Source of the DNA: an uncultured Acidobacteriota bacterium
Lineage (GTDB): Bacteria; Acidobacteriota; Vicinamibacteria; Vicinamibacterales; JAKQTR01
NCBI GenBank assembly: GCA_963834645.1
Contig: CAWICP010000003.1
Span: 7,435-71,434, forward strand
Direction of reading: 5' to 3'
Length of the DNA: 64,000 bases
Below are positions 12,060 to 38,576 of this stretch, piece after piece; position 1 is the stretch's first letter, and each line of letters begins with the position of its first letter. Below the pieces are notes generated by a model, which was not told where the DNA came from, ran no database searches, and saw only the letters and a list, made by a program, of their open reading frames with translations. Made by a program: the position numbers and the translations under genes.

Positions 12060-12101
12060 ACCAGGGTCTGACCCCGTAGACCGGCCTCAGCGAGGAGAAC
12101 A

Positions 12102-13136
12102 ATGGCGACGATCTACTACGACAAGGACGCGGATCTCGGCCTCATCACGAGGCGGAAAGTCGCGATCATCGGCTACGGGTCGCAGGGGCACGCGCACGCG
12201 CTGAACCTGCAGGACAGCGGCGCGACGGTGCGCCGTCGGCCTGCCGGACCGGCAGCCGCTCGCGCGAAAAGGCCGAGGCCCAGGGGCTCCGCGTCACGAG
12301 CGTCCCCGACGCCGCCGCCTGGGCGGACGTCATCATGGTCCTCGCGCCCGACACCCGGCAGCCGGCGATCTACGAGACCGGCGATCGCGCCGCACCTCAC
12401 GGCCGGCAAGATGCTGATGTTCGCGCACGGGTTCAACATCCGGTTCGGCACCATCGTGCCGCCGGCGGACGTCGACGTCACGATGGTCGCGCCGAAGTCG
12501 CCCGGGCACCGCGTCCGCGAGGTCTACCAGGAGGGCGGCGGGCACGCCGGCGCTGCTCGCCATCCACCAGGACGCCACGGGCCAGGCGAGGGCGGTCGCG
12601 CTCTCCTACGCGAAGGGCATCGGCGTCACGCGGGCCGGGGTGATCGAGACGACGTTCAGCCGAGGAAACCGAAACGGATCTCTTCGGCGAGCAGGCCGTG
12701 CTCTGCGGCGGCGTGAGCGCGCTCATCAAGGCCGGGTTACGAGACGCTCGTCGAGGCGGGCTACCAGCCGGAGATCGCCTATTTCGAGTGCCTCCACGAG
12801 CTGAAGCTCATCGTCGACCTCATCTACCGCGGCGGCCTGAACTACATGCGCTACTCGGTGAGCGACACCGCCGAGCACGGCGACTACACCGGCGGGCCGC
12901 GCATCGTCACCGACGAGACGCGGCGGGAGATGCGGCAGATGCTGGCCGAGATCGACGACGGCACCTACGCGAAGGCGTGGATCGCCGAAGATCGGGCCGG
13001 CCGGCCGCAGTTCACCGCCACGCAGCGGGCCGAGCAGCAGCACCCGATCGAAGCCGTCGGCGCCAGGCTGCGCGGCATGATGCCGTTCCTCGACGCCGTC
13101 ACGGTCGAGGCCGGGCAGCCGGCGGCGGCGCCCTGA
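12102..13136 (+). pseudogene. ilvC: ketol-acid reductoisomerase, at least 5 frameshifts as assembled
   Basis: Conserved segments lie in alternating frames: [83 protein letters not shown], and [23 protein letters not shown]. Confidence 0.9.
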
Positions 13137-17355: not shown

Positions 17356-17433
17356 CAAGAGTTGCGCCTGTCTTCCCCGCCAGGGCACGGGTTTGATGCC
17401 GTCCGCCCCATGTGTTCATTAGAGGGTATCTTC

Positions 17434-19533
17434 ATGAAATCACGCAGGTTCATCGTTCCGCTCCTCGCGCTCGCCGTGCTGGCCGGCGCGTTCGGCGTGG
17501 CACTCCGCGCCGAAGAAGGGTTCTGGCCCTACAACCTCGTCCCGAAAGCCGCGATCAAGGCCAAGTACAAGTTCGACGTCACCGACCAGTGGCTGAAGCA
17601 CCTGCAGCTGGCCACGGTGCACTTCGGCGGCGCCACCGGGTCGATCGTGTCGCCGCAGGGCCTGGTGCTCACCAACCACCACGTCGGCCTCCGTTCCCTG
17701 CAGCAGTTGAGCACGCCGGAGAAGGACCTGGTCAAGCACGGGTTCCTCGCGCCGACCATGGCCGACGAGCTGAAAGTGCCCGGCCTGTCGCTGCGGGTCC
17801 TCCAGAGCATCGAGGACGTCACGGCCAAGGTGGCCGCCGCCGTGACGCCGAACATGACGCCGCAGGAGATCGCCGCGGCGCGGCAGAAGGCCATCCAGGA
17901 GATCCAGGGTTCGCCGGAGCAGGGCGTCAGCCGGCAGGTCGTGGCGCTCTACGCCGGCGCCGTGCATCATCTCTACACCTACAAGACCTTCAACGACGTG
18001 CGGCTGGTGTTCGGCGTCGAGTACCAGACCGGGTTCTATGGCGGCGACGCGGACAACTTCACGTATCCGCGCTACAACATCGACGTCTCGATGTTCCGGC
18101 TGTACGAGAACGACAAGCCGGCCCAGACGCCCAATTACCTCAGGTGGTCTCCGAAGGGATCGGCGGCCGGCGAGCTGGTGTTCACGACCGGCCACCCGGG
18201 CTCGACGCAGCGCCTCAACACCGCGGCGCACTTCGAGTACCGCCGCGACATGGCGCTGCCCTTCTCGATCGCCAACCTCGAGATGCGCGAAGCGGCGGTG
18301 AAGAAGTGGATGGCGCAGAGCGACGAGAACGCGCGCCAGGGCACGACCGAACTCTTCGGCATCCAGAACAGCCTGAAGTCGCAGCGCGGCCAGCTGAAGG
18401 GCCTGCAGGACCCGGCGGTGATGGCCAAGAAGAAAGCCGCCGAGGCGCGGCTGCGCGCCGAACTGGCGAAGAACCCGGCCAAGCAGGCGGAACTGGGCGA
18501 CGCGTGGGACGTCATCGCGAAGTCCCTCGGCGTGGCGCGCGAGATCGACGCCGAGCGCAATTTCGTCGCGAACGCGGCGGGCCTGAACTCGACCCTGTTC
18601 GCGCAGGCGCGCCAGATGGTGCGCGCGGCCTACAATCCGCCGGCGGCGGGCGCGGCCGGCCGCGGCGGCCAGGCTCCGGCCGCCATGCCCGCGGGCGGGC
18701 CGGGCGGCGGCCGCGGAGGGGCGCAGGCGCCGATCAACCTGGCGCGCGAGAAGCTCAACCTGACCGAGTCGCTCGCGTTCATGCAGAAGCACCTGGGCGC
18801 CGACCATGCCATCGTCAAGCGCATCCTCGCCGGCAAGACGCCCGAGGCGCGCGCGGCCGAACTGGTCGACGGCACCCGGATCACGGACAGTGAAATCCGC
18901 ACGCTGCTGAGGGCGGGCGGCAGGGCCACCATCGACGCCTCGAGCGATCCGATGATCGTGCTCGCGCGCTCCCTCGAAGCGGACGCGCAGGCCGTCACCA
19001 AGCGCTTCGACAGCGACGTCGCCGCGGTCCAGGCCGCCGCGTACCCGAAGATCGGACAGGCCGTCTTCGCCGTCGACGGGGCGAAGGCGTATCCCGACGC
19101 GACGCTCACGCTGCGCCTCTCATACGGCACGGTGAAGGGGTATCTCGAGGACGGCAAGCAGATCCCGCCGTACACCAACGTCGCCGGCCTCTACGAGCGC
19201 GCCGCCCAGCACCAGGGCCAGCCGGACTACGCGCTGGCGCCCAAGTGGACCGAGGCCAAGGCGAGCCTCGACCCGAAGACGCCCTTCAACTTCGTCAGCA
19301 CCAACGACATCGTCGGCGGCAACAGCGGGTCGGCGGTGGTCAACAAGAAGGGTGAGATCGTCGGGTTGATCTTCGACGGCAACATCCAGTCGCTGCCCGG
19401 CTACTTCATCTACGACGAGTCGGTGAACCGCGCGGTGTCGGTCGACTCGCGCGTGATCCTCGAGTCCCTGAGGAAGGTGTACAAGGCCGATGCCCTCGCG
19501 AACGAGATCGCGGGCGCGCCAGCCAGAAAGTAG
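17434..19533 (+). CDS. S46 family dipeptidyl-peptidase (DPP7/DPP11-like)
   Basis: The signal peptide is followed by EEGFWPYNLVP. The catalytic His context is LTNHHVG and the catalytic Ser context is VGGNSGSAVVNKKGEIVGLIFDGN. The 700-aa reading frame is intact. Confidence 0.85.
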   Translation: MKSRRFIVPLLALAVLAGAFGVALRAEEGFWPYNLVPKAAIKAKYKFDVTDQWLKHLQLATVHFGGATGSIVSPQGLVLTNHHVGLRSLQQLSTPEKDLVKHGFLAPTMADELKVPGLSLRVLQSIEDVTAKVAAAVTPNMTPQEIAAARQKAIQEIQGSPEQGVSRQVVALYAGAVHHLYTYKTFNDVRLVFGVEYQTGFYGGDADNFTYPRYNIDVSMFRLYENDKPAQTPNYLRWSPKGSAAGELVFTTGHPGSTQRLNTAAHFEYRRDMALPFSIANLEMREAAVKKWMAQSDENARQGTTELFGIQNSLKSQRGQLKGLQDPAVMAKKKAAEARLRAELAKNPAKQAELGDAWDVIAKSLGVAREIDAERNFVANAAGLNSTLFAQARQMVRAAYNPPAAGAAGRGGQAPAAMPAGGPGGGRGGAQAPINLAREKLNLTESLAFMQKHLGADHAIVKRILAGKTPEARAAELVDGTRITDSEIRTLLRAGGRATIDASSDPMIVLARSLEADAQAVTKRFDSDVAAVQAAAYPKIGQAVFAVDGAKAYPDATLTLRLSYGTVKGYLEDGKQIPPYTNVAGLYERAAQHQGQPDYALAPKWTEAKASLDPKTPFNFVSTNDIVGGNSGSAVVNKKGEIVGLIFDGNIQSLPGYFIYDESVNRAVSVDSRVILESLRKVYKADALANEIAGAPARK

Positions 19534-19759: not shown

Positions 19760-19906
19760 GGCTGCGCCTCCTTCCGTCAGCTCCGGCTGATGCCGGCCGC
19801 AGGTCGAGTCTAGCGCCGCCCCGGCCGGCCGACAAGCGTCCCGCCGGGGGGCCGTCCCTCGTGTGCTACCATGCGCGGCCATGTGTGCCTTCCCAGGAGC
19901 GTGTTC

Positions 19907-22900
19907 ATGAAACGACTCTTCTTCGCTTCGACGGTCGCGGTCGCGCTGGCGGCCACGGCCATGGTCGGCGCAGGCCAGGGCCCGGGTGCGGCGCCGGGCG
20001 GCCTCACGGCCGACGTCCTCAAGGGCATCCAGCTCCGGAGCATCGGGCCGGCGCTCGCGACCGGGCGAATCGTCGACGTCCAGATCGACCCGAAGAACCC
20101 GAACGTCTGGTACGTGGTGAGCGCCTTCGGCGGCCTCTGGAAGACCGTCAACCGCGGCACCACCTTCACCCCGATCTTCGACGATGGCGGGTCGTTTACC
20201 TTGTCGACCATCGCCATCGATCCGAAGGACTCGAACGTGCTCTATCTCGGCACGGGCGAAGGCAACAGCCAGCGCAGCGCCCACTTCGGTGACGGCGTCT
20301 ACAAGTCGACCGACGCGGGCGCGACGTGGAAACGGGTCGGCCTGGAGACATCGGAGCACATCGGCAAGATCCTGATCGATCCCCGCAACTCGAACGTGGT
20401 CTACGTCGCCTCGCAGGGCCCCCTCTGGTCTCCGGGCGGCGAGCGCGGCCTGTACAAGACCACCGACGGCGGCACGACGTGGACACCGGTGCTGACGATC
20501 AGCCCCGACACGGGCATCAGCGACATCGTGTTCGACCCGAAGAACCCGGACATCCTGTTCGCGTCGGCCTACCAGCGGCGGCGGGCGGTCGGCCAGATGA
20601 TCGGCGGCGGGCCTGAAGGCGGCATCTTCAAGACCACCAACGCCGGCAAGACGTGGACGAAGCTGACCAAGGGCCTTCCCACGGGCGACATGGGCCGCGT
20701 GGGCTTCGCCGTCGACGGCCGCAAGACGCCGGCCACGCTGTTCGCCATTGTCGACGCCAAGCGGGAGGAATCCGGCTTCTATCGTTCGGATGACGGCGGC
20801 ACGACGTGGGCGCGCATCGGCCGGATGCCGCCGGCGGCAGGGTCGCGGCGGCGGGGCCGGCGGGCCCCAGGCCGTGGCGCCCCAGGCCGCCGCCGCGCGC
20901 GGCGCGCAGGCGGCTCCGCCGGCAGCCCGCCGGCAGCCGCCGGCAGCCACGCCGCAGCGCGGGGCCGGCGCCGCGCCGCAGCCGACGCCGGCCGGAACGA
21001 CGGCCGTCGACGACTGGTACCGCGGCGGCGGCGCGCAGTATTACCACGAGATCTTCGTCGACCCGCACCGGCCCGACACGATTTACTCGATGAACGTCAA
21101 CGTCGAGCGAAGCACCGACGGCGGCAAGACCTGGGGCCGCACGAACTGGGAGAACTACGGCGGCAACGGCCTCAACGTCCACGTCGATCACCACCACCTG
21201 ACGTTCGACCCGTCGGACAGGCGCCACATGCTGCTCGCCAACGACGGCGGCCTGTACGAGACCTACGACGAGGGCGCGACGTGGCGCTTCTTCGCCAACC
21301 TCCCGATCTCGCAGTTCTACCGGGTGTCGACGGACAACGCGAAGCCGTTCTACAACGTCTGCGGCGGCACGCAGGACAACTGGTCGTTCTGCGGCCCCTC
21401 GCGCTCGACCAACCGGTGGGGCGTGCGCACGAGCGACTGGTTCATCGTGGCGGGCGGCGACGGCTTCCAGACACGCAACGACCCCGAGGACCCGAACATC
21501 ATCTACGCGTCCTCCCAGGACGGCAACATCTCGCGCTTCGACGCGCGGACGGGCGTCTCGAGGTCGATCCGCCCGCCGCAGTCGCGCGCCGGCCGGGGGG
21601 AGGAGGCGGCGGCAGCGACGCGATGGGGGGCAGTGCGCCACAGGCGGCGGCGCCGCAGGCGGGCCGGGGAGGCCAGGCCGGCGCACCCGCGGGCGGCGGC
21701 GACCGGACAAACTGGGACGCGCCCTACATCATCAGCCCGCACGCGCCGAAGCGGCTCTACTGGGCGAGCAACCGCCTCTATCGCAGCGACGACCGCGGCG
21801 ACTCGTGGACGGTCATCAGCCCCGATCTCTCGCGCAACCTGAACCGGGACGAGATCCCGATCATGGGCAAGCTGTGGCCGACCGACTCGATCGCGCGCAA
21901 CACGTCGACCACCGCGCTGAGCAACATCGTCTCGCTCGACGAGTCGCCGCTTGCCGAGGGCCTGATCTACGTCGGGACCGACGACGGGCTGGTGCAGGTG
22001 ACGGAGGACGGCGGCAAGAACTGGCGCCGGGTCGAGGACTTCCCGGGCGTGCCGAAGTGGACGTACGTGACCGACGTGTTCGCGTCGCCGCGTGACGCGA
22101 ACACGGTGTTCGCGACGCTGAACAACTGGCAGCGCGGCGACTACAAGCCCTACATCGTCAGGAGCGCCGATCGCGGGCGCACCTGGACGAACATCACCGG
22201 CAACCTGCCGGCGCGGCACGATGTCTGGTCGATCATCCAGGACCACCTGAACGGCGACCTGCTGTTTGCGGGCACCGAGTTCGGGCTGTTCGCCTCGTTC
22301 GATGGCGGGAAGGCGTGGGTGCAGCTCAAGGGCGGCATGCCGCCGATCCAGGTGCGCGACATGACGGTCCAGCGCCGCGAGAACGACCTCGTGCTCGCGA
22401 CGTTCGGCCGCGGGTTCTACATCCTCGACGACTACAGCGCGCTGCGCGAGATCACGGCGCAGACGCTGGCAGAGGACGCCAGGCTCTTCCCGCTGCGCGA
22501 CGCGCCGCTGTTCAGCCAGACCGGCCTCGCACCGGCCGGCACCGCGGGCATCGGCCCGCTGGCCGGGAACTGGATCGCGCCCAACCCGCCGTTCGGGGCC
22601 GTCTTCACCTACTCGGTGGCGAAGGAGCCGGCGGCAGACGCCAAGCTGGTGCTGACCATCGCCGACGAGACGGGCAAACAGGTGCGCCGGATCGACCTGG
22701 ACAAGTCGGTCGGACTTCGCAGGGTGGCCTGGAACCTCCGCGGCGATCCGCCGGTTGCTGCTCCCGCGTCGGGCGCGGGCGGCGGGCCGGGCCAGGCCGC
22801 CGGCGGAGCGGCCGGGTTCGGCCGCGGCCAGATGGCGGCGCCAGTCGCGGCCGGGCGCTATCGCGCGACGCTCGGCACGCTGGTCGGCGACAAGGTCACC

Positions 22901-22948
22901 CCGATCGGCGAGCCCCGGGCGTTCCACGTCTTCGTGGTTCCGCAGTAG
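19907..22948 (+). CDS. BNR/sortilin (VPS10)-like repeat glycosidase-like protein, secreted; about 760 nt of the middle are out of frame between two compensating frameshifts
   Basis: AGGAG precedes ATG 19907, and a signal peptide follows. SxDxGxTW-type repeats are present ([96 protein letters not shown]). The true central part ([18 protein letters not shown]...GGTQDNWS) lies in ORF 20748-21842. Confidence 0.8.
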
Positions 22949-22972
22949 GACCGGGCCATCGCCCGCCTCTTG

Positions 22973-23014
22973 CCCCGGCTCCGCGGCGCGCGCCGCGGAG
23001 CCGGGGCCGTTTTG
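22973..23014 (+). terminator. rho-independent terminator
   Basis: A 16-bp GC-rich stem, CCCCGGCTCCGCGGCG-cg-CGCCGCGGAGCCGGGG, is followed by CCGTTTTG. It starts 25 nt after the stop at 22948. Confidence 0.8.
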
Positions 23015-23212
23015 CGCCTGCCCGATTAGACCATCCAGCCAAACTGGTCAGTCCTGTCAGGGAAGATGTCCGCCGACGGGACCAGCCTTGGGCTGGCGTC
23101 CGCGCCGGCCAGGAAATGAGCGAAGACACATGGCGAATGCCCCTTGACACGATGCCACGCAGACGCATAACGTGTGCGAAGTGGATTGGCCTTTGTGTCC
23201 TGATTCACGATG

Positions 23213-23223
23213 TGGTCAGACCA
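23213..23223. promoter_or_regulatory. candidate GntR/FadR-type operator TGGTCAGACCA upstream of the SDR-larA-gnd-kinase operon
   Basis: A perfect TGGTC-A-GACCA inverted repeat lies 66 nt upstream of ATG 23289 and downstream of a TTGACA at 23144-23149. The same GGTCAGACCA 10-mer recurs at 34125-34134 upstream of the GntR regulator gene. Confidence 0.45.
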
Positions 23224-23288
23224 AAGCGACATCTTCTGGCTCCCTCAACCAGCCCTCTGGCCGCCTGGCGCGGCCTCCGGAGATCGCC

Positions 23289-24122
23289 ATGACTGTGGCC
23301 CAGATCGATCGCGCCCGTGACTTCACCGGACAGACGGTGGCCATCACCGGGGGCACGGGAGTGCTCGGCGGCGAGATGGCGTGCGCGCTGGCCTGTCTGG
23401 GCGCCAACGTCGCGATGCTCGACCGGAACGTCGCGCACGCCGCGGCGCTCATGGAGCGGATGGGCCCGCACGCGAGCCGGGCCGCCGTCGTCGAGACCGA
23501 CGTGCTCGACCGCGCCAGCCTGGAACGGGCACTCGACCTCCTCGTGCAGCGCTTCGGCAGGGTCGATGCGCTCATCAACGCCGCCGGGGGCAATCACCCG
23601 AAGGCGACCACCGGCGCGAGCGGTTCGTTCTTCGACCTCCCGCCCGACGCCCTCCGATGGGTCTTCGACCTGAATCTCATCGGCACGATTCTGCCCTCCC
23701 AGGTGTTCGGCCGGGCGATGGCCGCGGATGGCGCCGGCACGATCCTGAACGTGTCGTCGATGAACGCGTTCAGGCCGCTCACGCGCATCGCCGCCTACTC
23801 GGCCGCGAAAGCCGGCGTGAGCAACTTCACGCAGTGGCTCGCCGTCCACATGGCGCGGGAGTACTCGCCGCGCATCCGCGTGAACGCGATTGCGCCCGGC
23901 TTCTTCCTCACCGACCAGAACCGGTTCCTGCTGACCGACGAGACAACGGGCGAACTCACGGACCGTGGCCGGACCATCATCGGCCACACGCCGATGGGCC
24001 GTTTCGGCCAGCCGGAAGACCTGCTGGGAGCCGTGCTGTGGCTCCTCTCGCCGGCGTCCGCCTTCGTGACGGGCATCATCGTGCCCATCGACGGCGGCTT
24101 CTCGGCCTTCAGCGGCGTGTAA
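23289..24122 (+). CDS. SDR family oxidoreductase, D-mannonate/fructuronate oxidoreductase-like
   Basis: It has TGGTGVLGG (cofactor motif), NAAGGN, SSMNAF, and YSAAK (catalytic YxxxK). The FFDLPPDALRWVFDLNLIGT segment is typical of UxuB/YjmF-type SDRs as I recall them. The frame is intact. Confidence 0.7.
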   Translation: MTVAQIDRARDFTGQTVAITGGTGVLGGEMACALACLGANVAMLDRNVAHAAALMERMGPHASRAAVVETDVLDRASLERALDLLVQRFGRVDALINAAGGNHPKATTGASGSFFDLPPDALRWVFDLNLIGTILPSQVFGRAMAADGAGTILNVSSMNAFRPLTRIAAYSAAKAGVSNFTQWLAVHMAREYSPRIRVNAIAPGFFLTDQNRFLLTDETTGELTDRGRTIIGHTPMGRFGQPEDLLGAVLWLLSPASAFVTGIIVPIDGGFSAFSGV

Positions 24123-24141
24123 CACGCGAGGCACAGGACCT

Positions 24142-25423
24142 ATGGTCATCGGGCACGGCGACACCACCCGCTACCTCTCGGACGCCGACGTCCGCCGCAT
24201 CGTCGCCGACGGGTTCGCCCCCGGAGGCGATCGACGGTAAACGCGTGCTCGTCCTCATTCCCGACGCCACGCGGACGATGCCGATGCCGCTGATGTTCGA
24301 GGCGCTCGCCGACACGATTGGACCGCGCGTGGCCGCGCTGGACTACCTGGTCGCCCTCGGCACGCACCAGCCGATGTCGGACGAACAACTGGGTCGCCTC
24401 GTGGGGCGCCCGGTCGCCGACGGCCGGACGGGCCGGAGCCGCGTGTTCAACCACCGGTGGGACCTCGACGGTACCTTCGCCGCGCTCGGGATCATTCCCG
24501 CCGCCGAGATGGCGGAGCTCTCGGGCGGCGTGCTCGCGGTCGACGTCCCGGTGTCGCTCAACCGGCTGCTGCTCGATTACGATCACCTCGTCATCTGCGG
24601 CCCGGTCTTCCCGCACGAGGTGGTCGGGTTCTCCGGCGGCACGAAGTACCTCGTCCCCGGCGTGGCCGGCCCCGACATCATCAACTTCACCCACTGGCTC
24701 GGCGCCCTCATCACGAGCAGCGCGGTGATCGGAGCCGGGTACACGCCCGTCCGGGCGGTGGTCGACCGCGCGGCGTCGATGGTCGATCGCCCCATGACCT
24801 GCCTGAGCCTCGTGGTGACGCACGACGGGATCGCCGGGCTGTATGTGGGGCCGCCGCGCGAATCGTGGGAGGCGGCCGCGGCGCTCTCCTCCCGGACGCA
24901 CATCGTGTGGGTGGACCGGCCCTTCACCCGTGTGCTGTCGGTGATGCCGGCGATGTACGACGATCTCTGGACGGCCGCCAAGGGGATGTACAAGCTGGAG
25001 CCCGCGATGGCCGAGGGCGGCGAAATCGTGATTTTCGCGCCGCACATCACGGAAGTCAGCTATACCCACGGCCACATCATCGACGAAGTCGGGTACCACT
25101 GCCGGGACTACTTCCTGGCGCAGTGGGACCGTTTCGGGCACTATCCGGGCGGCGTGCTGGCGCACTCGACGCACGTGAAGGGCCTCGGGACCTACGACGC
25201 GGCGGCGGGCGTCGAGACGCCCCGGATCACGGTGACGCTGGCCACCGGCATCCCGGAAGCGCGCTGCCGCCGGATCAACCTCGGCTACATGGATCCGGCG
25301 CAGGTCCGGCTGGACGAGTGGACAGGGCGCGAGGCCGACGGCATCATCGTCGTGCCGCGCGCCGGAGAGATGCTGTACCGCCTGCGCCCGGCGGCCGCCG
25401 CGGGAGCCTCACATGCAGAATGA
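24142..25423 (+). CDS. LarA-family (nickel-pincer cofactor dependent) 2-hydroxyacid racemase/epimerase homolog; N-terminal frameshift in the C5 run at 24218-24222
   Basis: The N-terminus MVIGHGDTTRYLSDADVRRIVADGFA joins EAIDGKRVLVLIPDATR. It contains ALGTHQPM and PHEVVGFSGGTKYLVPGVAGPDIINFTHW. The His-x10-Lys-x16-His spacing matches LarA His174/Lys184/His200 as I recall them. Confidence 0.75.
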
Positions 25424-26816
25424 CATCGGTGTCGTCGGCCTCGGAGTCATGGGCGCCAACCTGGCGCTCAACATGGAGCGCAACGGCTTTCGCATCGCCG
25501 GCTACGATCTCGAGGCCGCCAAGGGGCAGGCGTTCGCGGCCGGGCCGGCCGCGGGCCGCCACGTCGAGGTGGCGGCGTCGCCGGACCGGCTGATGGAGAT
25601 GCTCGCGCGCCCGCGCCGCGTCCTGATGATGGTGCCCGCCGGCGCCGCCGTCGACAGCGCCATCGCGCATCTCAAGCCGCACCTGCAGGGCGGCGACATC
25701 CTGATAGACGGCGGCAACTCCTGGTTCCTCGACACCGAGCGCCGGAGCAAGGCGCTCTCGGCCGACGGCTTCCAGTTCATCGGCACGGGCGTCTCGGGCG
25801 GCGAGCAGGGCGCGCTGTGGGGCCCCGCCATCATGCCGGGCGGGCAGCGCGAGGCGTGGGAGGCGCTCGCGCCGATCCTGCGGGCGATCGCGGCGAAAGC
25901 GGACGATGGCGAGCCCTGCGTGGATTACATGGGGCCTGGCGGAGCCGGGCACTACGTCAAGATGGTCCACAACGGCATCGAGTACGGCGACATGCAGCTC
26001 ATCGCCGAGGCGTACGACCTGCTCGCGCGCGGGCTGCGCCTCCCGGCGAAGGAACTGAGCGCGGTCTTCGAGGAGTGGAACGCCGGCGACCTGCGATCGT
26101 ACCTCGTCGAGATTACGGCCGAAGTGCTCGCGCGGACGGATCCGGAGACCGGCCGGCCGCTGGTCGACCTCATCCTCGACGAGGCGCAGCAGAAGGGCAC
26201 CGGCAAGTGGACCAGCCAGCACGCCTTCGACATCGGCGCGCCGATTCCCACCATCAACGCCGCCGTCGAGAGCCGCATCCTGTCGGCGCTCAAGGCCGAG
26301 CGCGTCCACGCGAGCCGCGTCCTGCACGGGCCGCCGCCGCACTACCACGGCCGGCGCGAGCGCCTGATCGAGGCGGTGAGGGCGGCGCTCTACGCGAGCA
26401 AGGTCACGTCGTACGCGCAGGGGTTCGGCCTGCTGCGCATGGCGTCGGCGGAGTATGGCTACGACCTGCAGGCCGGAACGATCGCGAGGATCTGGCGCGC
26501 AGGCTGTATCATCCGCGCCTCCCTGCTCGGCGACATCATGGCCGCCTACCAGCGCGACGCCGCGCTTCCGAATCTCCTGCTCGACGACACGTTCCGGCAG
26601 GCCATCGAACGCCGCCAGGGCTCATGGCGGTTCGCGGTGCAGGTCGCCGTGGAATTGGGGATCCCGGTGCCCGCGATGAGCGCGTCGCTCGCCTATTTCG
26701 ACGCGTACCGCAGCGAGCGGCTGCCGGCCAACCTGACGCAGGGACAGCGCGACTACTTCGGCGCGCACACGTACCGGCGCATCGACAAGCCCGGTGTGTT
26801 CCACACCGAGTGGTAA
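25413..26816 (+). CDS. gnd: 6-phosphogluconate dehydrogenase, decarboxylating
   Basis: Intact 467-aa ORF with GLGVMGANLALN, GGNSWF, GTGVSGGEQGA, GAGHYVKMVHNGIEYGDMQLI, and QRDYFGAHTY. It overlaps the upstream gene by 11 nt. Confidence 0.92.
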   Translation: MQNDIGVVGLGVMGANLALNMERNGFRIAGYDLEAAKGQAFAAGPAAGRHVEVAASPDRLMEMLARPRRVLMMVPAGAAVDSAIAHLKPHLQGGDILIDGGNSWFLDTERRSKALSADGFQFIGTGVSGGEQGALWGPAIMPGGQREAWEALAPILRAIAAKADDGEPCVDYMGPGGAGHYVKMVHNGIEYGDMQLIAEAYDLLARGLRLPAKELSAVFEEWNAGDLRSYLVEITAEVLARTDPETGRPLVDLILDEAQQKGTGKWTSQHAFDIGAPIPTINAAVESRILSALKAERVHASRVLHGPPPHYHGRRERLIEAVRAALYASKVTSYAQGFGLLRMASAEYGYDLQAGTIARIWRAGCIIRASLLGDIMAAYQRDAALPNLLLDDTFRQAIERRQGSWRFAVQVAVELGIPVPAMSASLAYFDAYRSERLPANLTQGQRDYFGAHTYRRIDKPGVFHTEW

Positions 26817-26849
26817 CGGCGGGAGATCGCGCGACGGGGAGATGACGAC

Positions 26850-27932
26850 ATGGCACACGACTTGACGATTCGCGAGGACGGCGCACTCGATTTCCTGTCG
26901 CTCGGGGCGCTGGTGCACCGGCTCGACCCCGGCGCGGTGCCCTTCCGGAAGGCGTCTTCCTGCGCGATTCACGTGAGCGGCGGCGAGTTCAACGTCGCGG
27001 CGAACCTCGCGGACTGCTTCCGCCTCAGGGCCGCCGTGGCGACGGCGATGGTCGACTATCCCATCGGCGATCTGATCGCCGAACGCGTCCGCGCGATGGG
27101 CGTCATCCCCCACTACAAACGGTTCGCGCACAACGGGGTCAACGGGCCCAACATGGCCACCGTGTACAGCGACCGCGGATTCGGCGCCCGGCCGCCGGTG
27201 GTCTTCTACAACCGCGCGCACGAGGCCGCCGCGCTGCTCAAGCCGGGCGACTTCGACTGGCCGGCCATCTTCGCGGGCGGCGTGCGATGGTTCCACAGCG
27301 GCGGGATCTTCGCGTCGCTCTCGGAGACGACCGGCGAGCTGATCATCGAGGCGATGAAGGCCGCGAAAGCCGCCGGCGCCGTCACGTCGTTCGACCTCAA
27401 TTTCCGCGAGAAGCTCTGGAGCATCTGGGGCGGCGCCTCCCGCGCGGCCGGCGTCATCGGGCGCATCGTCGAGCACGTGGACGTGCTCGTCGGCAACGAA
27501 GAGGACCTCCAGAAGGGCCTCGGCATCCCCGGTCCGGACGTGCACGCCGCCTCGAAGCTCGACCCGGCCGTGTTCCTCGCGATGATCGACGGCGTCGTCG
27601 CGAAGCATCCGAACGTGAAGGCGGTCGCGACGACGCTGCGGGAGGTGCACTCGACCAGCCGGCACAGCTGGAGCGCCGTGGCCTGGATGAAGGGCGAGAC
27701 ATTCGCCGCGCCGGCGTGCGATCTCGACGTGTACGACCGGGTCGGCGGCGGCGACGGGTTCGCGGCTGGATTCATCTACGGGCTGCTGGCCGGCGAGCCG
27801 CCGGCCGAAGCCGTCAAGCTCGGCTGGGCGCACGGCGCGCTGCTGACCACGTTCCCGGGCGATACGACGATGGCGACGGTGGAGCAGGTGCGCGCGTTCG
27901 CGAAGGGCGGCTCGGCGCGAATCCAGCGCTGA
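26850..27932 (+). CDS. PfkB-family sugar-acid kinase (2-dehydro-3-deoxygluconokinase-like; substrate not resolved)
   Basis: Intact 360-aa ORF preceded by a GGGGAG ribosome-binding site. It has FLSLGALVHRLDP at the N-terminus and the PfkB C-terminal motif DRVGGGDGFAAGFIYGLL. Confidence 0.7.
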   Translation: MAHDLTIREDGALDFLSLGALVHRLDPGAVPFRKASSCAIHVSGGEFNVAANLADCFRLRAAVATAMVDYPIGDLIAERVRAMGVIPHYKRFAHNGVNGPNMATVYSDRGFGARPPVVFYNRAHEAAALLKPGDFDWPAIFAGGVRWFHSGGIFASLSETTGELIIEAMKAAKAAGAVTSFDLNFREKLWSIWGGASRAAGVIGRIVEHVDVLVGNEEDLQKGLGIPGPDVHAASKLDPAVFLAMIDGVVAKHPNVKAVATTLREVHSTSRHSWSAVAWMKGETFAAPACDLDVYDRVGGGDGFAAGFIYGLLAGEPPAEAVKLGWAHGALLTTFPGDTTMATVEQVRAFAKGGSARIQR

Positions 27933-27976
27933 GGCCGGGGCTCAGCGGACATTCAGGTCGGGAGTCCCCGGCGTCT

Positions 27977-29919
27977 TCACGCCCGCGCGCGAGCCCCCGT
28001 CGCCTCGAGCCTCCGGTCGCGATACTCGTTTCGCGCGCTCGGCGCACGCTGTGCGACCGGCAGCGCGTCCATCAGGCCGTTGCGGCAGGGCTCAGAGACG
28101 CCAAGTCTCGACACGACGGCGCCGTCGGTCAGCGCGGCAAAGCTGAACGTCCCGCCGCCGCGCTCAACCGTGGCTGTCTTGTCCGGTCACGCTGATGTTC
28201 GAGGGCTGTCGCACCGTCGGTGGCGAGCATGGGCCAGCACTGACGGACGGCATCCACATCCCCTTCCACGCGGTGCTCGATCTCGGCACGGCCGTCCTTG
28301 AACAGGAGTTGCTCGACCACGGCGCTGGCGCCGCCGCGCAGGCGCCCTCGATAAGTCAGTCGCAGCTCGAGCTGCGTCGGCGTCGCTCGGGAGGAGCACG
28401 AACTCGGTTGGCTCGAGGTCGTCCCGGCCGTGGTCGGCGAGGGCATGCCAGGCGCCCGAACGGTCGCGCCACTCGGGCCCGAGCGCCAGCGAATCGCGTC
28501 GGCTTGGACGGCAGGCGATACGCCGCCGCCGAACTGACTCCGTCCGACAGCGTCTCGGGCGGAACGCCGAGCCGGTGCACACGGAGGAGCCCCGTCGGGT
28601 TGTAGTGCAGGTCGGCGCCGGTGTCGAACTCGAGGTAGAGGCCGCCCGGCAGGACGAACACCTTGTGGAATGCCGGCTGGAGCGAGAAGGCGTAGCGCCC
28701 CACATCTGCCGGGCACGGAACCAGGGCGATCCGGTCGTCCGCCCGGTCCAGGCGATGGCCAGCATTGCCGCGGCCAGCAGGTTGTACTGCGAGTGGAACG
28801 AGTACGACTCGTAGCCGTGGCGCGCCGACGGGTCCATGCGGTTCTTGACGATCCACAGTTCGCCGGACGGCCGGCGCCACCTGCCCGAGCGAGATTGCGC
28901 GAGCGGATGGCGCCGTGCTTGCACGCTCGGGCCGCGACCTCGTCGCCGCGCCTCGCGAACCGCGAGGCCCACGATTCGAACGTCACCGCCTGCTGCGCCT
29001 CGTTCCACTGGTGGTGGGCGCTGCGGCCGCCGCATGGCGCGTCGCCGTTCGGCGATTGCATGAACAGCGACATCCAGCAGCCGCGTTCGAGCAGTTCCTC
29101 CAATGCGCCTGCGTGGCGGCCACGGTACCCCTCATCCAGCAGGTCGAGCGCCCACAGCCGCGCGAAGTGGTCGTAGGCCATCGGGTCGTTCGGGTCCCGG
29201 TACATGCCCCACGGTGTGAACAACTGCAATTGGCGCTCGAGTGACGCTTCGACCCACGCCAGCGAGTTCCCGAGGCCGGCCTTCGTGCGCATCCACTCGC
29301 CCGCGGCCGCCACCAGATTCCAGTTGTTGGTCGTCGCATCGGTCGGCTGCCGGCGGTAGATCTTCTCCGGGACGATGCGAGCCAGGTCGCGCCGCCAGGC
29401 CGTCGAGGTCGACTCCGGCACGAGCGGCGCGAGCAGCCGGTCGGCGTGCATCAGCAACACCGTGTAGAAGTCGGCGTGGCCGTCGGCCGCTTTCCCGTCC
29501 GCGAGTGACGCGCACGCGAACGCCATCGCGCGCGACGACGGCCGTGCAGCGGCGCATCGTCACGCTTCGCCGCGCAGAGCGCGGCGCCGGCCAGCGCGAA
29601 CGCCGGCGTCGAGTACTGTTTCTCCGCGTGCTCGTAGGGATCGATGATGGCGCCGCGCCCGTCCTGGTGGGCCGCGAAGAAGCGGACGACTCCGGCGACG
29701 ATCGTCAGGTAGCCAGTCGCGCACGCCCTCATCGCGCGAAGTCGCCGACCGCCTCCGGCCACGCCCAGTCGCGCCGCGAAACTGCTTCACGGCTCCGGCG
29801 AGCGGGAACTCGCCGAACCGCTCCTGCACGGCGTCGGCCGCCCGCAGGCGAGCGCCCACGCTCATGCCGGCCGCGCCGGCGGCCACGCTCGCCACGAACC
29901 GCCGACGGGTCCAGTCCAT
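27977..29919 (-). pseudogene. Tat-signal secreted protein of unknown function, possibly a polysaccharide-acting enzyme; at least 7 frameshifts as assembled
   Basis: GGAGG precedes the start, and the N-terminus is MDWTRRRFVASVAAGAAGMSVGARL. Coding-like segments are spread over three frames: YLTIVAGVVRFFAAHQDGRGAIIDPYEHAEKQY, FYTVLLMHADRLL..NNWNLVAAAGEWMR..WGMYRDPNDPMAYDHFARLWALDLL..HHQWNEAQQ, WIVKNRMDPSARHGYESYSFHSQYNLLAAAMLAIAW, YLEFDTGADLHYNPTGLLRVHRLG, and DKTATVERGGGTFSFAALTDG. The last frame stops at 27977-27979. Confidence 0.5.
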
Positions 29920-30019: not shown

Positions 30020-30910
30020 ATGGAGATTGAAATCGCCGTCGTCCCCGTCGCCGGTCTCGGCACCCGCCTGTTGCCCGCGACCAAGTCCCAGCCGAAGGAG
30101 ATGCTGCCGGTCGGCCGCAAGCCGGTCGTGCAGTACGTCGTGGAGGAACTGACCCGCGTCGGCACCAGGCAGGTGCTCTTTGTCACAGGCCCCGGCAAGG
30201 CCTCGATCGAGAACCACTTCGATCTGAACGCCGACCTCATCCAGACGCTCCGCGAAGACGGCAAAGAAGATCTCCTGGCGGAGCTGGCCTTCGAGCGGTC
30301 GGCGGTCCAGTACTTCTACACGCGGCAGCGGCAGCTGCTCGGCCTCGGGCACGCCGTGCTGTGCGCGAAGTCGTTCGTCGGCCGGCGCCCGTTCATCGTC
30401 GCGCTCGGCGACTCGATCATCGGCATGCACGCCGAGAGCGACGTCGTGCGGCGGATGGTGCGCTGCTTCCTCGAGCGGGACGCGGTGGCCGTCATCGCGT
30501 TCGAAGAGGTGCCGCGCGAGGAGGTCTCGCACTACGGCATCGCGTCGCCGGTCTCGTCGGGCGACATCTTCGAGCTGGCCGACGTCGTCGAGAAGCCGTC
30601 GCCGGACGAAGCGCCGAGCACGCTGGCCATCGCGGCCAGGTACGTGCTGTCGCCGGCGGTGTTCGACGCGCTCGAGACGACAGCCCCGGGCAAGGGCGGG
30701 GAAATCCAGCTGACCGACGCGCTGCGCGCGCTCATCCGGCAGGGCGGCAAGGCGTACGGCGTCCGCCTGACGGGCGGGGAGCGGCGTTACGACATCGGCA
30801 ACTTCGACGCGTACTTCCAGGCGTTTGTCGAGTTCGCCCTGTCCGATCCGCGGCACGGCGAGGCCCTGCGGCGCCACCTGGAGGAGCTGCTCCATGTTCC
30901 TCACGCGTAA
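30020..30910 (+). CDS. galU: UTP--glucose-1-phosphate uridylyltransferase-type nucleotidyltransferase
   Basis: Intact 296-aa ORF with VPVAGLGTRLLPATKSQPKEMLPV, LGLGHAVLCA, and VEKP. It overlaps the next gene by 17 nt. Confidence 0.85.
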   Translation: MEIEIAVVPVAGLGTRLLPATKSQPKEMLPVGRKPVVQYVVEELTRVGTRQVLFVTGPGKASIENHFDLNADLIQTLREDGKEDLLAELAFERSAVQYFYTRQRQLLGLGHAVLCAKSFVGRRPFIVALGDSIIGMHAESDVVRRMVRCFLERDAVAVIAFEEVPREEVSHYGIASPVSSGDIFELADVVEKPSPDEAPSTLAIAARYVLSPAVFDALETTAPGKGGEIQLTDALRALIRQGGKAYGVRLTGGERRYDIGNFDAYFQAFVEFALSDPRHGEALRRHLEELLHVPHA

Positions 30911-31901
30911 GCGCGCCTACGCGCGGGCCGGCCTGCTCGGCAACCCCTCGGACGGGTACCACGGGAAGACCATTTCGTTCAGCGTGCGCGACTTCTTCGC
31001 CGAGGTCGTGCTCTACGAGTGGGACTCGGTGGAGATCGTGCTGGCGGAGGGCGACCGCGCGCGCTTCAAGTCCGTGCAGGACCTCGCGCGCGACGTGCGG
31101 CTCCACGGGTACTATGGCGGCATCCGCCTGATCAAGGCCACCATCAAGCGGTTCGCCGAGTTCTGCGACGCGCAGGGCATCGCGCTGCACGATCGGAACT
31201 TCTCGGTCCGCTACCAGACGACCATTCCCCGGCAGGTGGGGCTTGCCGGGTCGAGCGCCCTGATTGTCGCCACGCTCCGCTGCCTGATGGAGTTCTACCA
31301 GATCGAGATCCCGATCGAGGCGCAGCCGACCTTCGTGCTGAACGTGGAGCAGGAAGAACTGGGGATCACGGCGGGGCTGCAGGACCGCGTGATCCAGGTC
31401 TACGAAGTCCTCGTCTACATGGACTTCGACCGGTCCCGTGAGCGCGTCGTGGCGGGGCTGCCCTGCTACCACTACGAGCGCCTCGACCCGGCGCTCCTGC
31501 CGCCTGTCTACGTCGCGTATCACATCAGCATGGGCGAGCCCACCGAGATCTTCCACAACGCCATCCGCGATCGCTACAACCGCGGCGAGGCGCTCGTCGT
31601 GGACGCCATGTCGCACTTCGCGTCGCTGGCGGCGGACGGGCGCGAGGCCATCCTGGCCGGCGATCACGAGAGGCTCTCGGCGCTTGTCGACGAGAACTTC
31701 GACACGCGGCGCCGCATCTACAACCTGGCGCCATGGCAGATCGCCCAGGTCGAGACGGCCCGCCGGTGCGGCGCGAGCGCGCAATTCGCGGGATCCGGCG
31801 GCGCGATTGTCGGCACCTATCGGGATGCGGCCATGCTCGAAGACCTCAAGCGGGAACTGGCCGCCATCGGTTCGCGGACCTTCGTGCCGGAGATCGCCTG
31901 A
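30894..31901 (+). CDS. GHMP-family kinase, glucuronokinase-like
   Basis: GGAGGAG precedes ATG 30894. The product has AYARAGLLGNPSDGYHGKTISFSV at the N-terminus and the GHMP motif IPRQVGLAGSSALIVA. It resembles plant-type glucuronokinases as I recall them. The frame is intact. Confidence 0.65.
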   Translation: MFLTRKRAYARAGLLGNPSDGYHGKTISFSVRDFFAEVVLYEWDSVEIVLAEGDRARFKSVQDLARDVRLHGYYGGIRLIKATIKRFAEFCDAQGIALHDRNFSVRYQTTIPRQVGLAGSSALIVATLRCLMEFYQIEIPIEAQPTFVLNVEQEELGITAGLQDRVIQVYEVLVYMDFDRSRERVVAGLPCYHYERLDPALLPPVYVAYHISMGEPTEIFHNAIRDRYNRGEALVVDAMSHFASLAADGREAILAGDHERLSALVDENFDTRRRIYNLAPWQIAQVETARRCGASAQFAGSGGAIVGTYRDAAMLEDLKRELAAIGSRTFVPEIA

Positions 31902-33412
31902 CGCTGCGCCAGCGTCGAGGGCTCCAGCAATGCCGGCTTCGCCTCCGTGCGATGGAGCCCGGGGGCTGCAGCCCCCGGGTTCACGCCCTCCGCCGCCTTC
32001 CCGAGCGGGAACCCGAAATAGTCGCGCGCGTTGAAGAAGCAGACGTTGGAGACCAGACGGCCGAGGAGTTCGCGGTCGTCGGGCAGGCGTCCGCGCCGGA
32101 CGTCCTCGCCGACGAGATTGCACAGGAGCCGGCGGAAGTACTCGTGGCGCGAGTAGGACAGGAAGCTGCGCGAGTCGGTGACCATGCCGACAAAGCGCGA
32201 CAGGAGGCCCATGTTCGACAGCGCGGCCATCTGGTCCGTCATCCCGTCGAGCTGGTCGAGGAACCACCAGGCTGAGCCGTACTGCATCTTCCCCGGCACC
32301 GACCCGTCCTGGAAGTTGCCGATCATGGTCGCCAGCAGCGCGTTGTCGCGGGGGTTCAGGTTGTAGAGGATCGTCTTCGCGAGCTGGTTCGTGTCGTCGA
32401 GGCGGTCGAGGAAGCGCGCGAGCGGGCGGGCGATCTCGACATCGCCTATCGAGTCGAAGCCCGTGTCGGGCCCCAGCGTGCGTCGCATCCGCGTGTTGGT
32501 GTTCCGCAGCGCCCCCAGGTGGAACTGCTGGGCCCAGCCGCGAGCGTGATCGAGGAGGGCGAGCTCGTAGAGCAGGGCGGACTTCAGCTTGAGGGCGTCG
32601 GCGGCGCCTGGCGCCCGCCCCGCACGGAGCGCGTCGAAGGCCGCGTCGAGTTCGGCGGCGGTCGCCGGCTCGACAGACAGCGTTTCCAGCCCGTGATCGG
32701 AGGCGCGGCAGCCCATCGCGTGGAACGCGTCGTGGCGCGCTGCGAGCGCCTCGACGAGCGAAGAGAAGCGCCCGCCGACCGCCTTGCCCGACGCCTGCTC
32801 GAGACGGGTCAGGTAGGCGCCAAACGCCGCCGGGTCTTCGACCGCGAAGACGCTGTCGGGCCGCCACGTGGGGTAGACGCGCGTATCGGGGTCCGGCCGC
32901 TCCGCCAGGCGCCGGTGGTGCCGCAGGTCGTCGGTCGGATCGTCGGTCGTGCACACGACCGCCACGCGGAAGCCGCGCAGCAACCCGAGGCTGGTGAATC
33001 CGTCCTCCTGGAGCCGCTGGTTGCAGCGGTCGAAGATGCCCCGCGCGGTGGAGGGCGACAGGCGTTCGTCGACGCCGAAGGGCCTCCGCAACTCCATGTG
33101 GGTCCAGTGATAGAGCGGATTGCGGAGCGTGTCGGGCACGGTCCGGGCCCACGCCTCGAACTTCTCCCACGCTGTCGCGCTCCCGGTGCAGTAGCGCTCG
33201 TCAACCCCGTTGGCCCGCATCGCCCGCCACTTGTAGTGGTCGCCGTCGAGCCAGATCTCCGTGATGGATCCGAACCGGTGGTCGTCCGCCATCTGCTCCG
33301 GCGACAGGTGGCAGTGGTAGTCGACGATGGGCAGGTCCGCCGCGTACCGGTGGTAGAGGTCCACCGCGACCGGGCTCTCGAGCAGGAAGTCGTCCGACAG
33401 GAACCTGATCAC
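31817..33412 (-). CDS. uxaC: glucuronate isomerase; the conserved core ends near 32009 and the last approximately 63 codons are doubtful
   Basis: The product starts (GTG)IRFLSDDFLLESPVAVDLYHRYAADLPIVDYHCHL and contains GDHYKWRAMRANGV and WWFLDQ. The family-typical C-terminus is NARDYFGF. The GTGA overlap with the GntR stop suggests an operon. Confidence 0.88.
   Translation of the reverse strand: MIRFLSDDFLLESPVAVDLYHRYAADLPIVDYHCHLSPEQMADDHRFGSITEIWLDGDHYKWRAMRANGVDERYCTGSATAWEKFEAWARTVPDTLRNPLYHWTHMELRRPFGVDERLSPSTARGIFDRCNQRLQEDGFTSLGLLRGFRVAVVCTTDDPTDDLRHHRRLAERPDPDTRVYPTWRPDSVFAVEDPAAFGAYLTRLEQASGKAVGGRFSSLVEALAARHDAFHAMGCRASDHGLETLSVEPATAAELDAAFDALRAGRAPGAADALKLKSALLYELALLDHARGWAQQFHLGALRNTNTRMRRTLGPDTGFDSIGDVEIARPLARFLDRLDDTNQLAKTILYNLNPRDNALLATMIGNFQDGSVPGKMQYGSAWWFLDQLDGMTDQMAALSNMGLLSRFVGMVTDSRSFLSYSRHEYFRRLLCNLVGEDVRRGRLPDDRELLGRLVSNVCFFNARDYFGFPLGKAAEGVNPGAAAPGLHRTEAKPALLEPSTLAQRQAISGTKVREPMAASSRLRSSSMAASR
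31955..31982. terminator. stem-loop between the convergent GHMP kinase and uxaC genes
   Basis: GAGCCCGGGGGC-tgca-GCCCCCGGGTTC forms a stem of approximately 12 bp. It lies inside the unusual C-terminal extension of the uxaC ORF. Confidence 0.6.
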
Positions 33413-34107
33413 GATGCTGCTCCCTCTTCTTCGGCCTGCGTCCGGTACGCGCGTTCGAGGTGATCGCGCATGGCGCGGCTCGCGCGCTCGGGGTCGCGTG
33501 CGCGCAGCGCCACGTAGATGGCGCGGTGCTCGTCGGCGGCCTGCTTCAGGTCGTGCGCGCGGTTGATGCTCTCCTGCCGCTGCTCGCGGAACTGCTCGGC
33601 CACCATGTTGACCAGCGCCGAGAGCACCGGGTTGCCGCTGGCCGCCGCGACGGCCCGGTGGAACGCGATGTCGTGCCCCAGGAAGGCCTGCGGATCGTCG
33701 AGGGACGCGAACATGCCGGTGGCTTCCTCGCTGACGGCAATCGTGTCCTCCGGCACCGCGTGCCGCGCCGCCAGCCCGGCGACGGCCACCTCGAGGACGA
33801 GACGGGCCTGGAACATCTGGTCGCGCGTGAACCCGTGGAGCGCCGCCTGGAAGCGCAGCGCGTTGGTCCCGAACGCGGGCGGCCCCCCCGCGATGAACGA
33901 TCCGGCGCCGGGCCGGATGACGACCACGCCCATCTCCGCCAGCGATCGCAGGCCGGCCCGCAGGCTCGGCCGGCTCACGCCAAGCTCCCGCGCCAGTTCG
34001 CGCTCGGCGGGCAGGCGCTCGCCGCCTTTGAACTGGCCGCGGTCAAGCAAACCGCGCACGTGCGCCACCACCAGCGCACTGGCTTCGGATCCCCGGTGTC
34101 CTCGCAT
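33409..34107 (-). CDS. GntR/FadR-family transcriptional regulator
   Basis: The winged-HTH reads GERLPAERELARELGVSRPSLRAGLRSLAEMGVV. An all-helical FCD-type C-terminal domain follows (FHRAVAAASGNPVL, EHRAIYVALRARD). Confidence 0.85.
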   Translation of the reverse strand: MRGHRGSEASALVVAHVRGLLDRGQFKGGERLPAERELARELGVSRPSLRAGLRSLAEMGVVVIRPGAGSFIAGGPPAFGTNALRFQAALHGFTRDQMFQARLVLEVAVAGLAARHAVPEDTIAVSEEATGMFASLDDPQAFLGHDIAFHRAVAAASGNPVLSALVNMVAEQFREQRQESINRAHDLKQAADEHRAIYVALRARDPERASRAMRDHLERAYRTQAEEEGAAS

Positions 34108-38558: not shown

Positions 38559-38576
38559 GGCGCTCCCTCTGACGTC

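Follow-up and report, generated by a model that had tools for sequence, protein, structure and literature searches.

A route from hexuronates to ribulose-5-phosphate was proposed for Thermotoga maritima by Rodionova et al. (2012), as their account is relayed in PMC7583248, PMC3750489 and PMC6978723. The T. maritima genes form a UxaR-regulated cluster with the order gnd-uxaR-uxaE-uxaD-gntE-gntK (PMC3750489), gntE homologs have been noted in Acidobacterium and Terriglobus (PMC6978723), and the activity of GntE was proven in 2020 by Desguin et al. (PMC7583248). Here, we describe a 64-kb stretch of DNA (the window, meaning the whole stretch that was analysed), with a G+C content of about 70%, in which four genes at 23289-27932 encode a short-chain dehydrogenase/reductase (SDR), a LarA homolog (LarAH), 6-phosphogluconate dehydrogenase (Gnd) and a sugar-acid kinase of the PfkB family. 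The nearest relatives of the window LarAH are annotated as Vicinamibacterales, phylum Acidobacteriota. We lean towards the view that these genes make up one operon carrying the lower half of a hexuronate-to-pentose-phosphate shunt, an acidobacterial counterpart of gnd-uxaRED-gntEK of T. maritima.

In the pathway that we propose, UxaC, whose gene lies close by and shares an operon with that of a GntR-type regulator, would convert D-glucuronate to D-fructuronate, which the SDR would reduce to D-mannonate, probably with NADH. The LarAH, an epimerase of the group-19 GntE type, would then invert C2 of mannonate to give D-gluconate, by means of a nickel-pincer nucleotide (NPN) as cofactor and a LarA-like proton-coupled hydride transfer that involves two histidines. 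The PfkB kinase, which appears to have been recruited from the lineage of 2-keto-3-deoxygluconate (KDG) kinases (KdgK), would phosphorylate C6 to produce 6-phosphogluconate, and Gnd would decarboxylate this product to ribulose-5-phosphate. With a NAD-type loop in Gnd, the SDR and Gnd steps would balance each other in redox terms, and the GntR regulator would bind TGGTCAGACCA ahead of both operons. Family-level gene identities, group-19 membership, conservation of catalytic residues, synteny and a shared operator motif are established below; all substrate assignments, the order in which the epimerase precedes the kinase and the binding of the regulator are what we infer.

Gene content, epimerase group and synteny

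The genes that would supply the five steps, together with the regulator, are as follows.

23289-24122, + strand: SDR fructuronate reductase / D-mannonate oxidoreductase, 277 aa (NCBIfam PRK08277, 358.5 bits, cutoff 281; Pfam adh_short)
24142-25423, + strand: LarAH, group 19 (GntE1 type), predicted NPN-dependent hexonate C2-epimerase (Pfam Lar_N, 75 bits)
25413-26816, + strand: gnd, decarboxylating 6-phosphogluconate dehydrogenase, 467 aa (TIGR00873, 652 bits, cutoff 427)
26850-27932, + strand: PfkB sugar-acid kinase, 360 aa, of KdgK ancestry, predicted hexonate (gluconate/mannonate) 6-kinase (Pfam PfkB)
31817-33412, - strand: uxaC, glucuronate (uronate) isomerase (Pfam UxaC, 637 bits; NCBIfam PRK02925, 600 bits, cutoff 387)
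33409-34107, - strand: GntR/FCD regulator, 232 aa (Pfam GntR and FCD; homolog in the related contig L003); its stop codon overlaps the uxaC start by 4 nt

An initial annotation, made from the letters of the window, had described the first four genes as tightly packed on one strand, with a 19-nt gap, an 11-nt overlap and a 33-nt gap, and the coordinates agree. Its family assignments held as well: the SDR, named there as a mannonate/fructuronate oxidoreductase type, passes the D-mannonate oxidoreductase model PRK08277, gnd passes the TIGR00873 equivalog, the kinase matches Pfam PfkB, and the uxaC, GntR regulator and galU-like genes named in the neighbourhood are matched by Pfam models, uxaC by an NCBIfam model as well. 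The co-location known from Thermotoga, of SDR, GntE-type LarAH, kinase and Gnd with a GntR-family regulator and UxaC, is present here. Mannonate dehydratase (UxuA) and 2-keto-3-deoxy-6-phosphogluconate (KDPG) aldolase (Eda) had been reported as missing; indeed, Pfam scans of called open reading frames (ORFs) and tblastn probes detected neither of them, nor GntK, in the window. The tblastn queries were E. coli Eda, UxuA and GntK sequences, and the Eda probe was validated in that the ORFs it matched were confirmed by Pfam as KDPG aldolase.

LarA-family membership of the second gene product, also claimed in the initial annotation, is supported by Pfam PF09861 (Lar_N, 75 bits, cutoff 23) and by a full-length match to 4NAR, and the GTH and PHEVVGFSGGTKYLVPGVAGPDIINFTHW motifs are present with the H-x10-K-x16-H spacing described there. 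4NAR is T. maritima GntE2 (LarAH20), which epimerises D-mannonate to D-gluconate via the NPN cofactor (PMC7583248). It is the best solved structure for the window protein, with E = 1.7e-64 over the full length. Mar2 and LarA match at about 1e-6, and we rejected a lactate or malate racemase identity on this difference.

We compared the protein to the LarAH groups using the group sequences and 20-position signatures in the supplementary dataset of Desguin et al. 2020 (PMC7583248). Identity was highest to the group-19 members from Nostoc punctiforme and Roseiflexus castenholzii (55-56%), followed by those from Planctomyces brasiliensis and Frankia (48-50%) and by the characterised group-19 enzyme, C. 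glutamicum GntE1 (42%); it was 34% to T. maritima GntE2 of group 20 and 29-32% to two Granulicella proteins of group 18. The group-19 signature (D R H H E V K H V W T A K G L A S T H R) is matched at 19 of 20 positions, and the sole exception, the last, is a K, as in the group-19 member Npun_F5335. Membership in group 18, the only group for which NCBIfam has a model (NF052594, NPN_18_hexonate, "putative hexonate epimerase"), was rejected: the match reached 166 bits against a cutoff of 500 and spanned model positions 23-326 of 411. In LarA numbering, the catalytic residues are Asp72, His108, His174 and Lys298, and the NPN-binding residues are Arg75, Lys184 and His200; counterparts of all seven are present (D41, R44, H75, H158, K168, H184 and K280). 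These residues are invariant in 74 relatives (74 loci), apart from a single K-to-R substitution of the tethering residue. By sequence, the homolog is a GntE1-type LarAH of group 19 and not a lactate/malate racemase, and the placement among racemase and epimerase clades that the initial annotation had called for came out on the gluconate 2-epimerase branch, as indicated by the 4NAR match, the group-19 signature and the identities.

To survey relatives, one genome per species was scanned, yielding 369 relatives, from which 80 loci were fetched; synteny was counted over 81 non-redundant species-level loci. Gnd was scored as present when it lay within 6 kb, and a kinase with 60% or more identity to that of the window counted as a PfkB ortholog. 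The SDR gene lies directly upstream of LarAH in 54 of the 81 loci, whereas Gnd and a PfkB ortholog are each present in 26. In 25 of the 26 loci that have it, the PfkB ortholog immediately follows LarAH or Gnd and shares their strand; two gene orders occur, LarAH-Gnd-PfkB and LarAH-PfkB-Gnd. Close relatives keep the order of the window: SDR, LarAH, Gnd, PfkB, a 645-aa protein (opposite strand), the galU-like gene, a GHMP kinase, and uxaC with gntR (opposite strand). The arrangement was seen in Vicinamibacteria, Terriglobia, Holophagales, Solibacteraceae and Chloroflexota, and this recurrence across phyla, in many species-level genomes, answers the synteny question posed in the initial annotation and argues against its caveat that gnd might be co-located by chance. 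Neighbours that recur in related loci are the tagaturonate epimerase UxaE, a GH88 unsaturated glucuronyl hydrolase, a major facilitator superfamily (MFS) transporter and a GFO/IDH/MocA oxidoreductase; a transaldolase is found in one. Since LarAH, kinase and Gnd recur together beside uronate genes, we regard this locus type as a hexuronate-catabolic island in which the three travel together. With the E. coli queries, UxuA and GntK gave no tblastn match in the window or in any locus, a weak negative.

Gnd scored 674 bits with PRK09287 (cutoff 413) in addition to its TIGR00873 match. NADP-dependent 6-phosphogluconate dehydrogenases bind the 2'-phosphate with a loop that reads N-R-T/S, and at the first of these positions natural NAD-preferring enzymes carry Asp (PMC5090862). 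In T. maritima Gnd, N32D raised the Km for NADP+ 460-fold, N32D/R33L/T34S raised it to >100 mM, and engineered N32D/R33L abolishes NADP+ use (PMC5090862). The window Gnd does not have the N-R-T/S loop: it reads Y-D-L-E, with D-L-E at the positions of N32-R33-T34. The 17 Gnd orthologs encoded beside LarAH, directly after it in at least 14 cases, have D-L-E/D/A or D-V-D at this loop, whereas four more distant Gnds (L054, L072, L077 and L082) retain N-R-T. The SDR has an Asp at the end of strand beta-2 (LDRN), where Asp is the usual, if weak, NAD(H) marker of classical SDRs. Together, the D-L-E loop in Gnd and the Asp in the SDR lead us to predict NAD-type cofactor preferences for both enzymes and a redox-neutral, NAD-linked conversion of fructuronate to ribulose-5-phosphate and CO2.

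Allowing one mismatch, TGGTCAGACCA has only two sites in the window, both in promoter regions. These and a candidate promoter are listed here.

23144-23172, + strand: candidate promoter, read directly and weak, with TTGACA at 23144-23149 and CATAAC/ATAACG 16-17 nt downstream
23213-23223: operator-like palindrome TGGTCAGACCA, 66 nt upstream of the SDR start codon
34124-34134: second operator-like site AGGTCAGACCA, 17 nt upstream of the gntR start codon

The half-site pattern of TGGTCAGACCA is one that we take to be typical of FadR/GntR-family operators. In related loci, the motif is found upstream of the SDR operon (L001, L002, L004, L009 and L010) and upstream of gntR (L003, L004 and L006), and a variant, TGGTCATACCA, precedes UxaE-LarAH-PfkB operons in L064, L075, L077 and L082; the galU-like/GHMP pair is not preceded by an operator-like site. 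This distribution suggests that one regulon may cover both the four-gene operon and gntR-uxaC. A sigma-70 consensus scan of 22900-28200 called no promoter upstream of the SDR gene, and the only terminator-like site in the same interval, at 28157, was within chance expectation.

Kinase identity and the order of steps

Several observations weigh against the proposed shunt. The best solved structure for the kinase is that of T. maritima KdgK TM0067 (2AFB, E = 5e-47, 33% identity), the NCBIfam model that it matches best, in the kinase portion, is a fusion with KDPG aldolase (Eda) (239 bits), and to our knowledge no PfkB-family gluconate kinase has ever been characterised. The one available hexonate-epimerase model, that of group 18, is matched by the LarAH far below its cutoff, and the LarAH gene is not intact in the assembled sequence, as described below. 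Pfam scans found no larB, larC or larE among the window ORFs, nor were these genes found within about 10 kb of LarAH in the 81 loci; a scan for a PP-loop (LarE-like) motif was likewise empty for the window and all fetched loci, up to 10 kb on either side of LarAH. The survey for UxuA, Eda and GntK covers the window and the loci, and the rest of the genome may hold these genes. Finally, in the one group-19 enzyme that has been characterised, GntE1, the Km for mannonate is 120 mM, and the authors of that work doubt that mannonate is the native substrate (PMC7583248).

By homology, the kinase is a relative of KdgK, and its hexonate specificity is predicted from genomic context only. The kinases linked to LarAH are 72-95% identical to the window kinase across lineages (blastp), and 12 positions are fixed differently between them and four KdgKs, among them the middle residue of the conserved Y-x-R motif (N121 vs D). 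Neither an FGGY nor a P-loop GntK was found in the window or the loci; the kinase here is of the PfkB family. If it acts on a hexonate, then UxaC, SDR, LarAH, kinase and Gnd would form a gap-free, five-step route from glucuronate to ribulose-5-phosphate.

The alternative that survives best keeps the same enzymes in the opposite order, with PfkB phosphorylating D-mannonate first and LarAH acting as a 6-phosphomannonate 2-epimerase that makes 6-phosphogluconate for Gnd. Both activities have been demonstrated in extracts of Lactobacillus suebicus, where genes were not assigned to them (PMC6978723), and a 6-phosphomannonate 2-epimerase would explain the poor binding of free mannonate by GntE1, whose authors suspect a related native substrate (PMC7583248); together, these two points keep the kinase-first order a live alternative for this operon. 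The 11-nt overlap couples LarAH translationally to Gnd, which fits a LarAH product that is the Gnd substrate, and a KdgK-derived kinase would presumably recognise the C4-C6 part that is common to KDG, mannonate and gluconate. However, GntE1 and GntE2 epimerise free mannonate in vitro (PMC7583248), the partner kinase in T. maritima is taken as a gluconate kinase (PMC6978723), and LarA homologs acting on a phosphorylated substrate have not been demonstrated so far. The sequence itself favours neither order, and we consider kinase-first possible, if rather improbable. On the same tentative footing, PfkB as a D-mannonate 6-kinase and the group-19 LarAH as a 6-phosphomannonate 2-epimerase might provide the genes for the two orphan L. 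suebicus activities (2020). A literature search for mannonate kinase and 6-phosphomannonate epimerase found nothing beyond the L. suebicus paper.

It is unlikely, in our view, that the kinase is an ordinary KDG kinase in a mosaic cluster, with KDG made via UxuA or ManD and gluconate used via GntK, both encoded elsewhere. This explanation draws on the closeness to T. maritima KdgK 2AFB, the top NCBIfam matches to KDG kinases and the Eda-kinase fusion, and the carboxylate-site motifs Y-x-R and D-x-N-x-R, which are common to KdgKs; moreover, T. maritima retains both routes (PMC3750489), and in L072 the operon has an eda gene at a distance of 9 kb. However, the KdgK equivalog models are all matched far under their cutoffs (KDG_KDGal_kin_Halo 123/440, KDG_KDGal_kin 65/400 and DhDoxglucKinKdgK 26/400), and no UxuA or Eda is encoded beside this kinase type in 25 of 26 loci. 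Apart from the case in L072, Eda (tblastn, confirmed by Pfam) adjoins only KdgK paralogs that are 33-46% identical to the window kinase (L051, L068 and L060), and within the phylum a KdgK-KduI-KduD-Eda cluster contains a separate paralog of 46% identity; Eda, KduI, KduD and UxuA are all absent next to the window kinase type, which is the sole kinase consistently linked to LarAH and Gnd. As a KdgK, it would leave the operon without a maker of the Gnd substrate and without the enzymes before and after KdgK. Genomic context therefore argues against KDG as the substrate, and we retain the proposal of a hexonate kinase.

The cluster with the 46%-identical KdgK was seen in L051 (11347-18568, a Terriglobia metagenome-assembled genome, MAG), in which LarAH is followed by IclR, an MFS transporter, KdgK, KduI, KduD, an IS605 OrfB/TnpB-type transposase and Eda. 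The IS605 element is inserted inside the canonical KDG cluster.

In one respect the initial annotation failed: it had treated 24142-25423 as one open frame and overlooked a frameshift. The ATG frame of the LarAH gene stops at a TAA at 24238-24240, after 32 codons, and the remainder is in the +1 frame. An alignment showed C5 at 24218-24222 in the window against C4 in three relatives; when one C is deleted, the gene encodes a 426-aa protein collinear with 426-aa homologs. As ilvBNCD and neighbouring genes are fragmented too, we take the extra C for a probable assembly error. In the window, ilvD, ilvB, ilvN and ilvC occur only as fragments, a BNR/sortilin-type protein has two frame changes relative to intact homologs, and the 645-aa protein has about five. 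The damaged stretches are these.

8708-13136: indel-damaged stretch
19901-22948: indel-damaged stretch
28013-29919: indel-damaged stretch

The pattern of indels across the window is typical of unpolished long-read assemblies, and many related contigs bear names in the style of long-read MAG assemblies; the galU-like gene is truncated in L003 too. With ilvBNCD and neighbouring genes in pieces, we treated isolated frameshifts in the window as probable assembly errors. That the LarAH gene is a recently inactivated pseudogene, its frameshift real and the route broken in this organism, is very unlikely even though the extra C ends the ATG frame so early, since the remaining gene is intact and 96% identical to P0001, the insertion is located in a homopolymer, essential genes (the four ilv genes) and two neighbouring genes are fragmented as well, and an in-frame GTG at 24245 could still yield a 392-aa product.

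Of the route from glucuronate through mannonate, gluconate and 6-phosphogluconate to ribulose-5-phosphate put forward in the initial annotation, a good part stands: it is supported by the epimerase branch, by synteny, by the absence of Eda and UxuA beside this kinase type and by the common operator. It did not stand as a new idea, and the kinase turned out to be related to KdgK.

Neighbouring genes

Between the kinase gene and uxaC lie three further features.

28013-29919, - strand: remnants of a 645-aa Tat-signal protein, family not recognised (tblastn of the intact L003 homolog)
30020-30910, + strand: GalU-like sugar-1-phosphate nucleotidyltransferase, 296 aa (Pfam NTP_transferase; TIGR01099 galU, 284 bits, below the cutoff of 327)
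30894-31901, + strand: GHMP-family sugar kinase, 335 aa, overlapping the galU-like gene by 17 nt

The 645-aa protein has a twin-arginine-like signal (MDWTRRRFVASVAAGAAG...), and an intact copy is found at L003:13794-15731 (-). In Vicinamibacterales loci its place between kinase and galU-like gene is conserved, and it gave no match in Pfam, NCBIfam or PDB sequence searches; it could be an unrecognised uronate-releasing enzyme. The label "glucuronokinase-like" that the GHMP kinase had received did not hold up, as the only similarity is a weak one to heptose kinases, and we rejected a glucuronokinase identity as unsupported. The galU-like/GHMP kinase pair also occurs near LarAH in L020 and L026, and may be a salvage pair of sugar-1-kinase and pyrophosphorylase. 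The uxaC ORF extends 54 codons beyond the end of its 477-aa L003 homolog (31817-31981), and runs into the convergent GHMP kinase gene at the latter's 3' end; this overrun may reflect another indel near the stop codon.

In Terriglobia, SDR-LarAH is followed, on the opposite strand, by the gene of a protein of about 630 aa (L052:3098-4987 (-) and about 22 other loci). This protein has a weak partial match to UxaE (75 bits) and may be a divergent UxaE-like enzyme. The wider surroundings of the window locus hold a 1351-aa TonB-dependent receptor and several secreted peptidases (S46, M3), at 38261-42316 (-), 17410-19533 and 34973-37090; a 718-aa protein at 57298-59454 (-) is without a Pfam match.

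Comparison with described uronate routes

The pathway model is well supported, and it has been published in outline, the concept dating from 2012; no new field is opened by this locus. What is new here is the linkage of group-19 enzymes, in Acidobacteriota and Chloroflexota, with Gnd and with a kinase derived from KdgK; in addition, the linked Gnd looks NAD-type, and the kinase family differs from the FGGY GntK of Thermotoga. The context of gnd coupling, mannonate oxidoreductase and sugar-acid kinase argues that group 19 feeds mannonate or 6-phosphomannonate into 6-phosphogluconate. The kinase appears to be a non-orthologous replacement of gluconate kinase, with the 12 fixed differences as candidate specificity positions; if it is a hexonate kinase, it would represent a third, unrecognised family of gluconate/mannonate kinases. 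The predicted sharing of NAD(H) between SDR and Gnd would make the path from fructuronate to ribulose-5-phosphate redox-neutral, and the nickel-pincer cofactor would serve abundant aerobic Acidobacteriota of soil in the breakdown of uronic acids of plant and microbial origin.

The T. maritima shunt is the closest described system. As in the model proposed here, an SDR fructuronate/mannonate oxidoreductase adjoins a LarA-family gluconate 2-epimerase, kinase and Gnd belong to the same regulon, the regulator is of the GntR family, UxaC supplies fructuronate, and the net path leads from uronate to ribulose-5-phosphate without UxuA or Eda. Unlike the locus described here, T. maritima has an FGGY-type GntK (COG1070) where we find a PfkB kinase of KdgK ancestry; its epimerase belongs to LarAH group 20 (34% identical) and not to group 19, and its Gnd is NADP-preferring (N32-R33-T34), whereas the loop here is D-L-E. 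UxaE is absent from this window and present in related loci.

Like C. glutamicum GntE1 (LarAH19), to which it is 42% identical, the window enzyme has the signature loop E-V, W-T-A-K in helix 11 and G-L-A-S-T-H in helix 14, and both stand in a uronate-related context; for GntE1, the physiological substrate has been questioned on account of the 120 mM Km (PMC7583248). The published contexts of group 19 are different from this one: they contain LarB, LarC, LarE, UxaC, a UxuB-type dehydrogenase and beta-glucuronidase, with no Gnd or ribokinase-family kinase (PMC7583248). The gene set of the locus is that published for LarAH group 18 (NF052594), an uncharacterised group found with SDR (36%), 6-phosphogluconate dehydrogenase (32%), ribokinase-family kinase (16%) and glucuronate isomerase (12%) (PMC7583248). 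In sequence, however, group 18 is distinct, being 29-32% identical, with the signature W-V/L-N-K and L-I-H-S and a model score of 166 vs 500 bits.

The L. suebicus route (PMC6978723) also leads from uronate through mannonate and 6-phosphogluconate to ribulose-5-phosphate, is redox-neutral and bypasses UxuA, KdgK and Eda. It differs in that the kinase-first order has been shown there, the candidate kinases are GntK homologs and not PfkB proteins, and genes have not been assigned. With the Ashwell isomerase pathway (UxaC-UxuB-UxuA-KdgK-Eda), the locus shares UxaC and the fructuronate reductase step, and its kinase descends from KdgK; unlike that pathway, it has no UxuA or Eda in the window or beside this kinase type, and LarAH and Gnd stand in their place.

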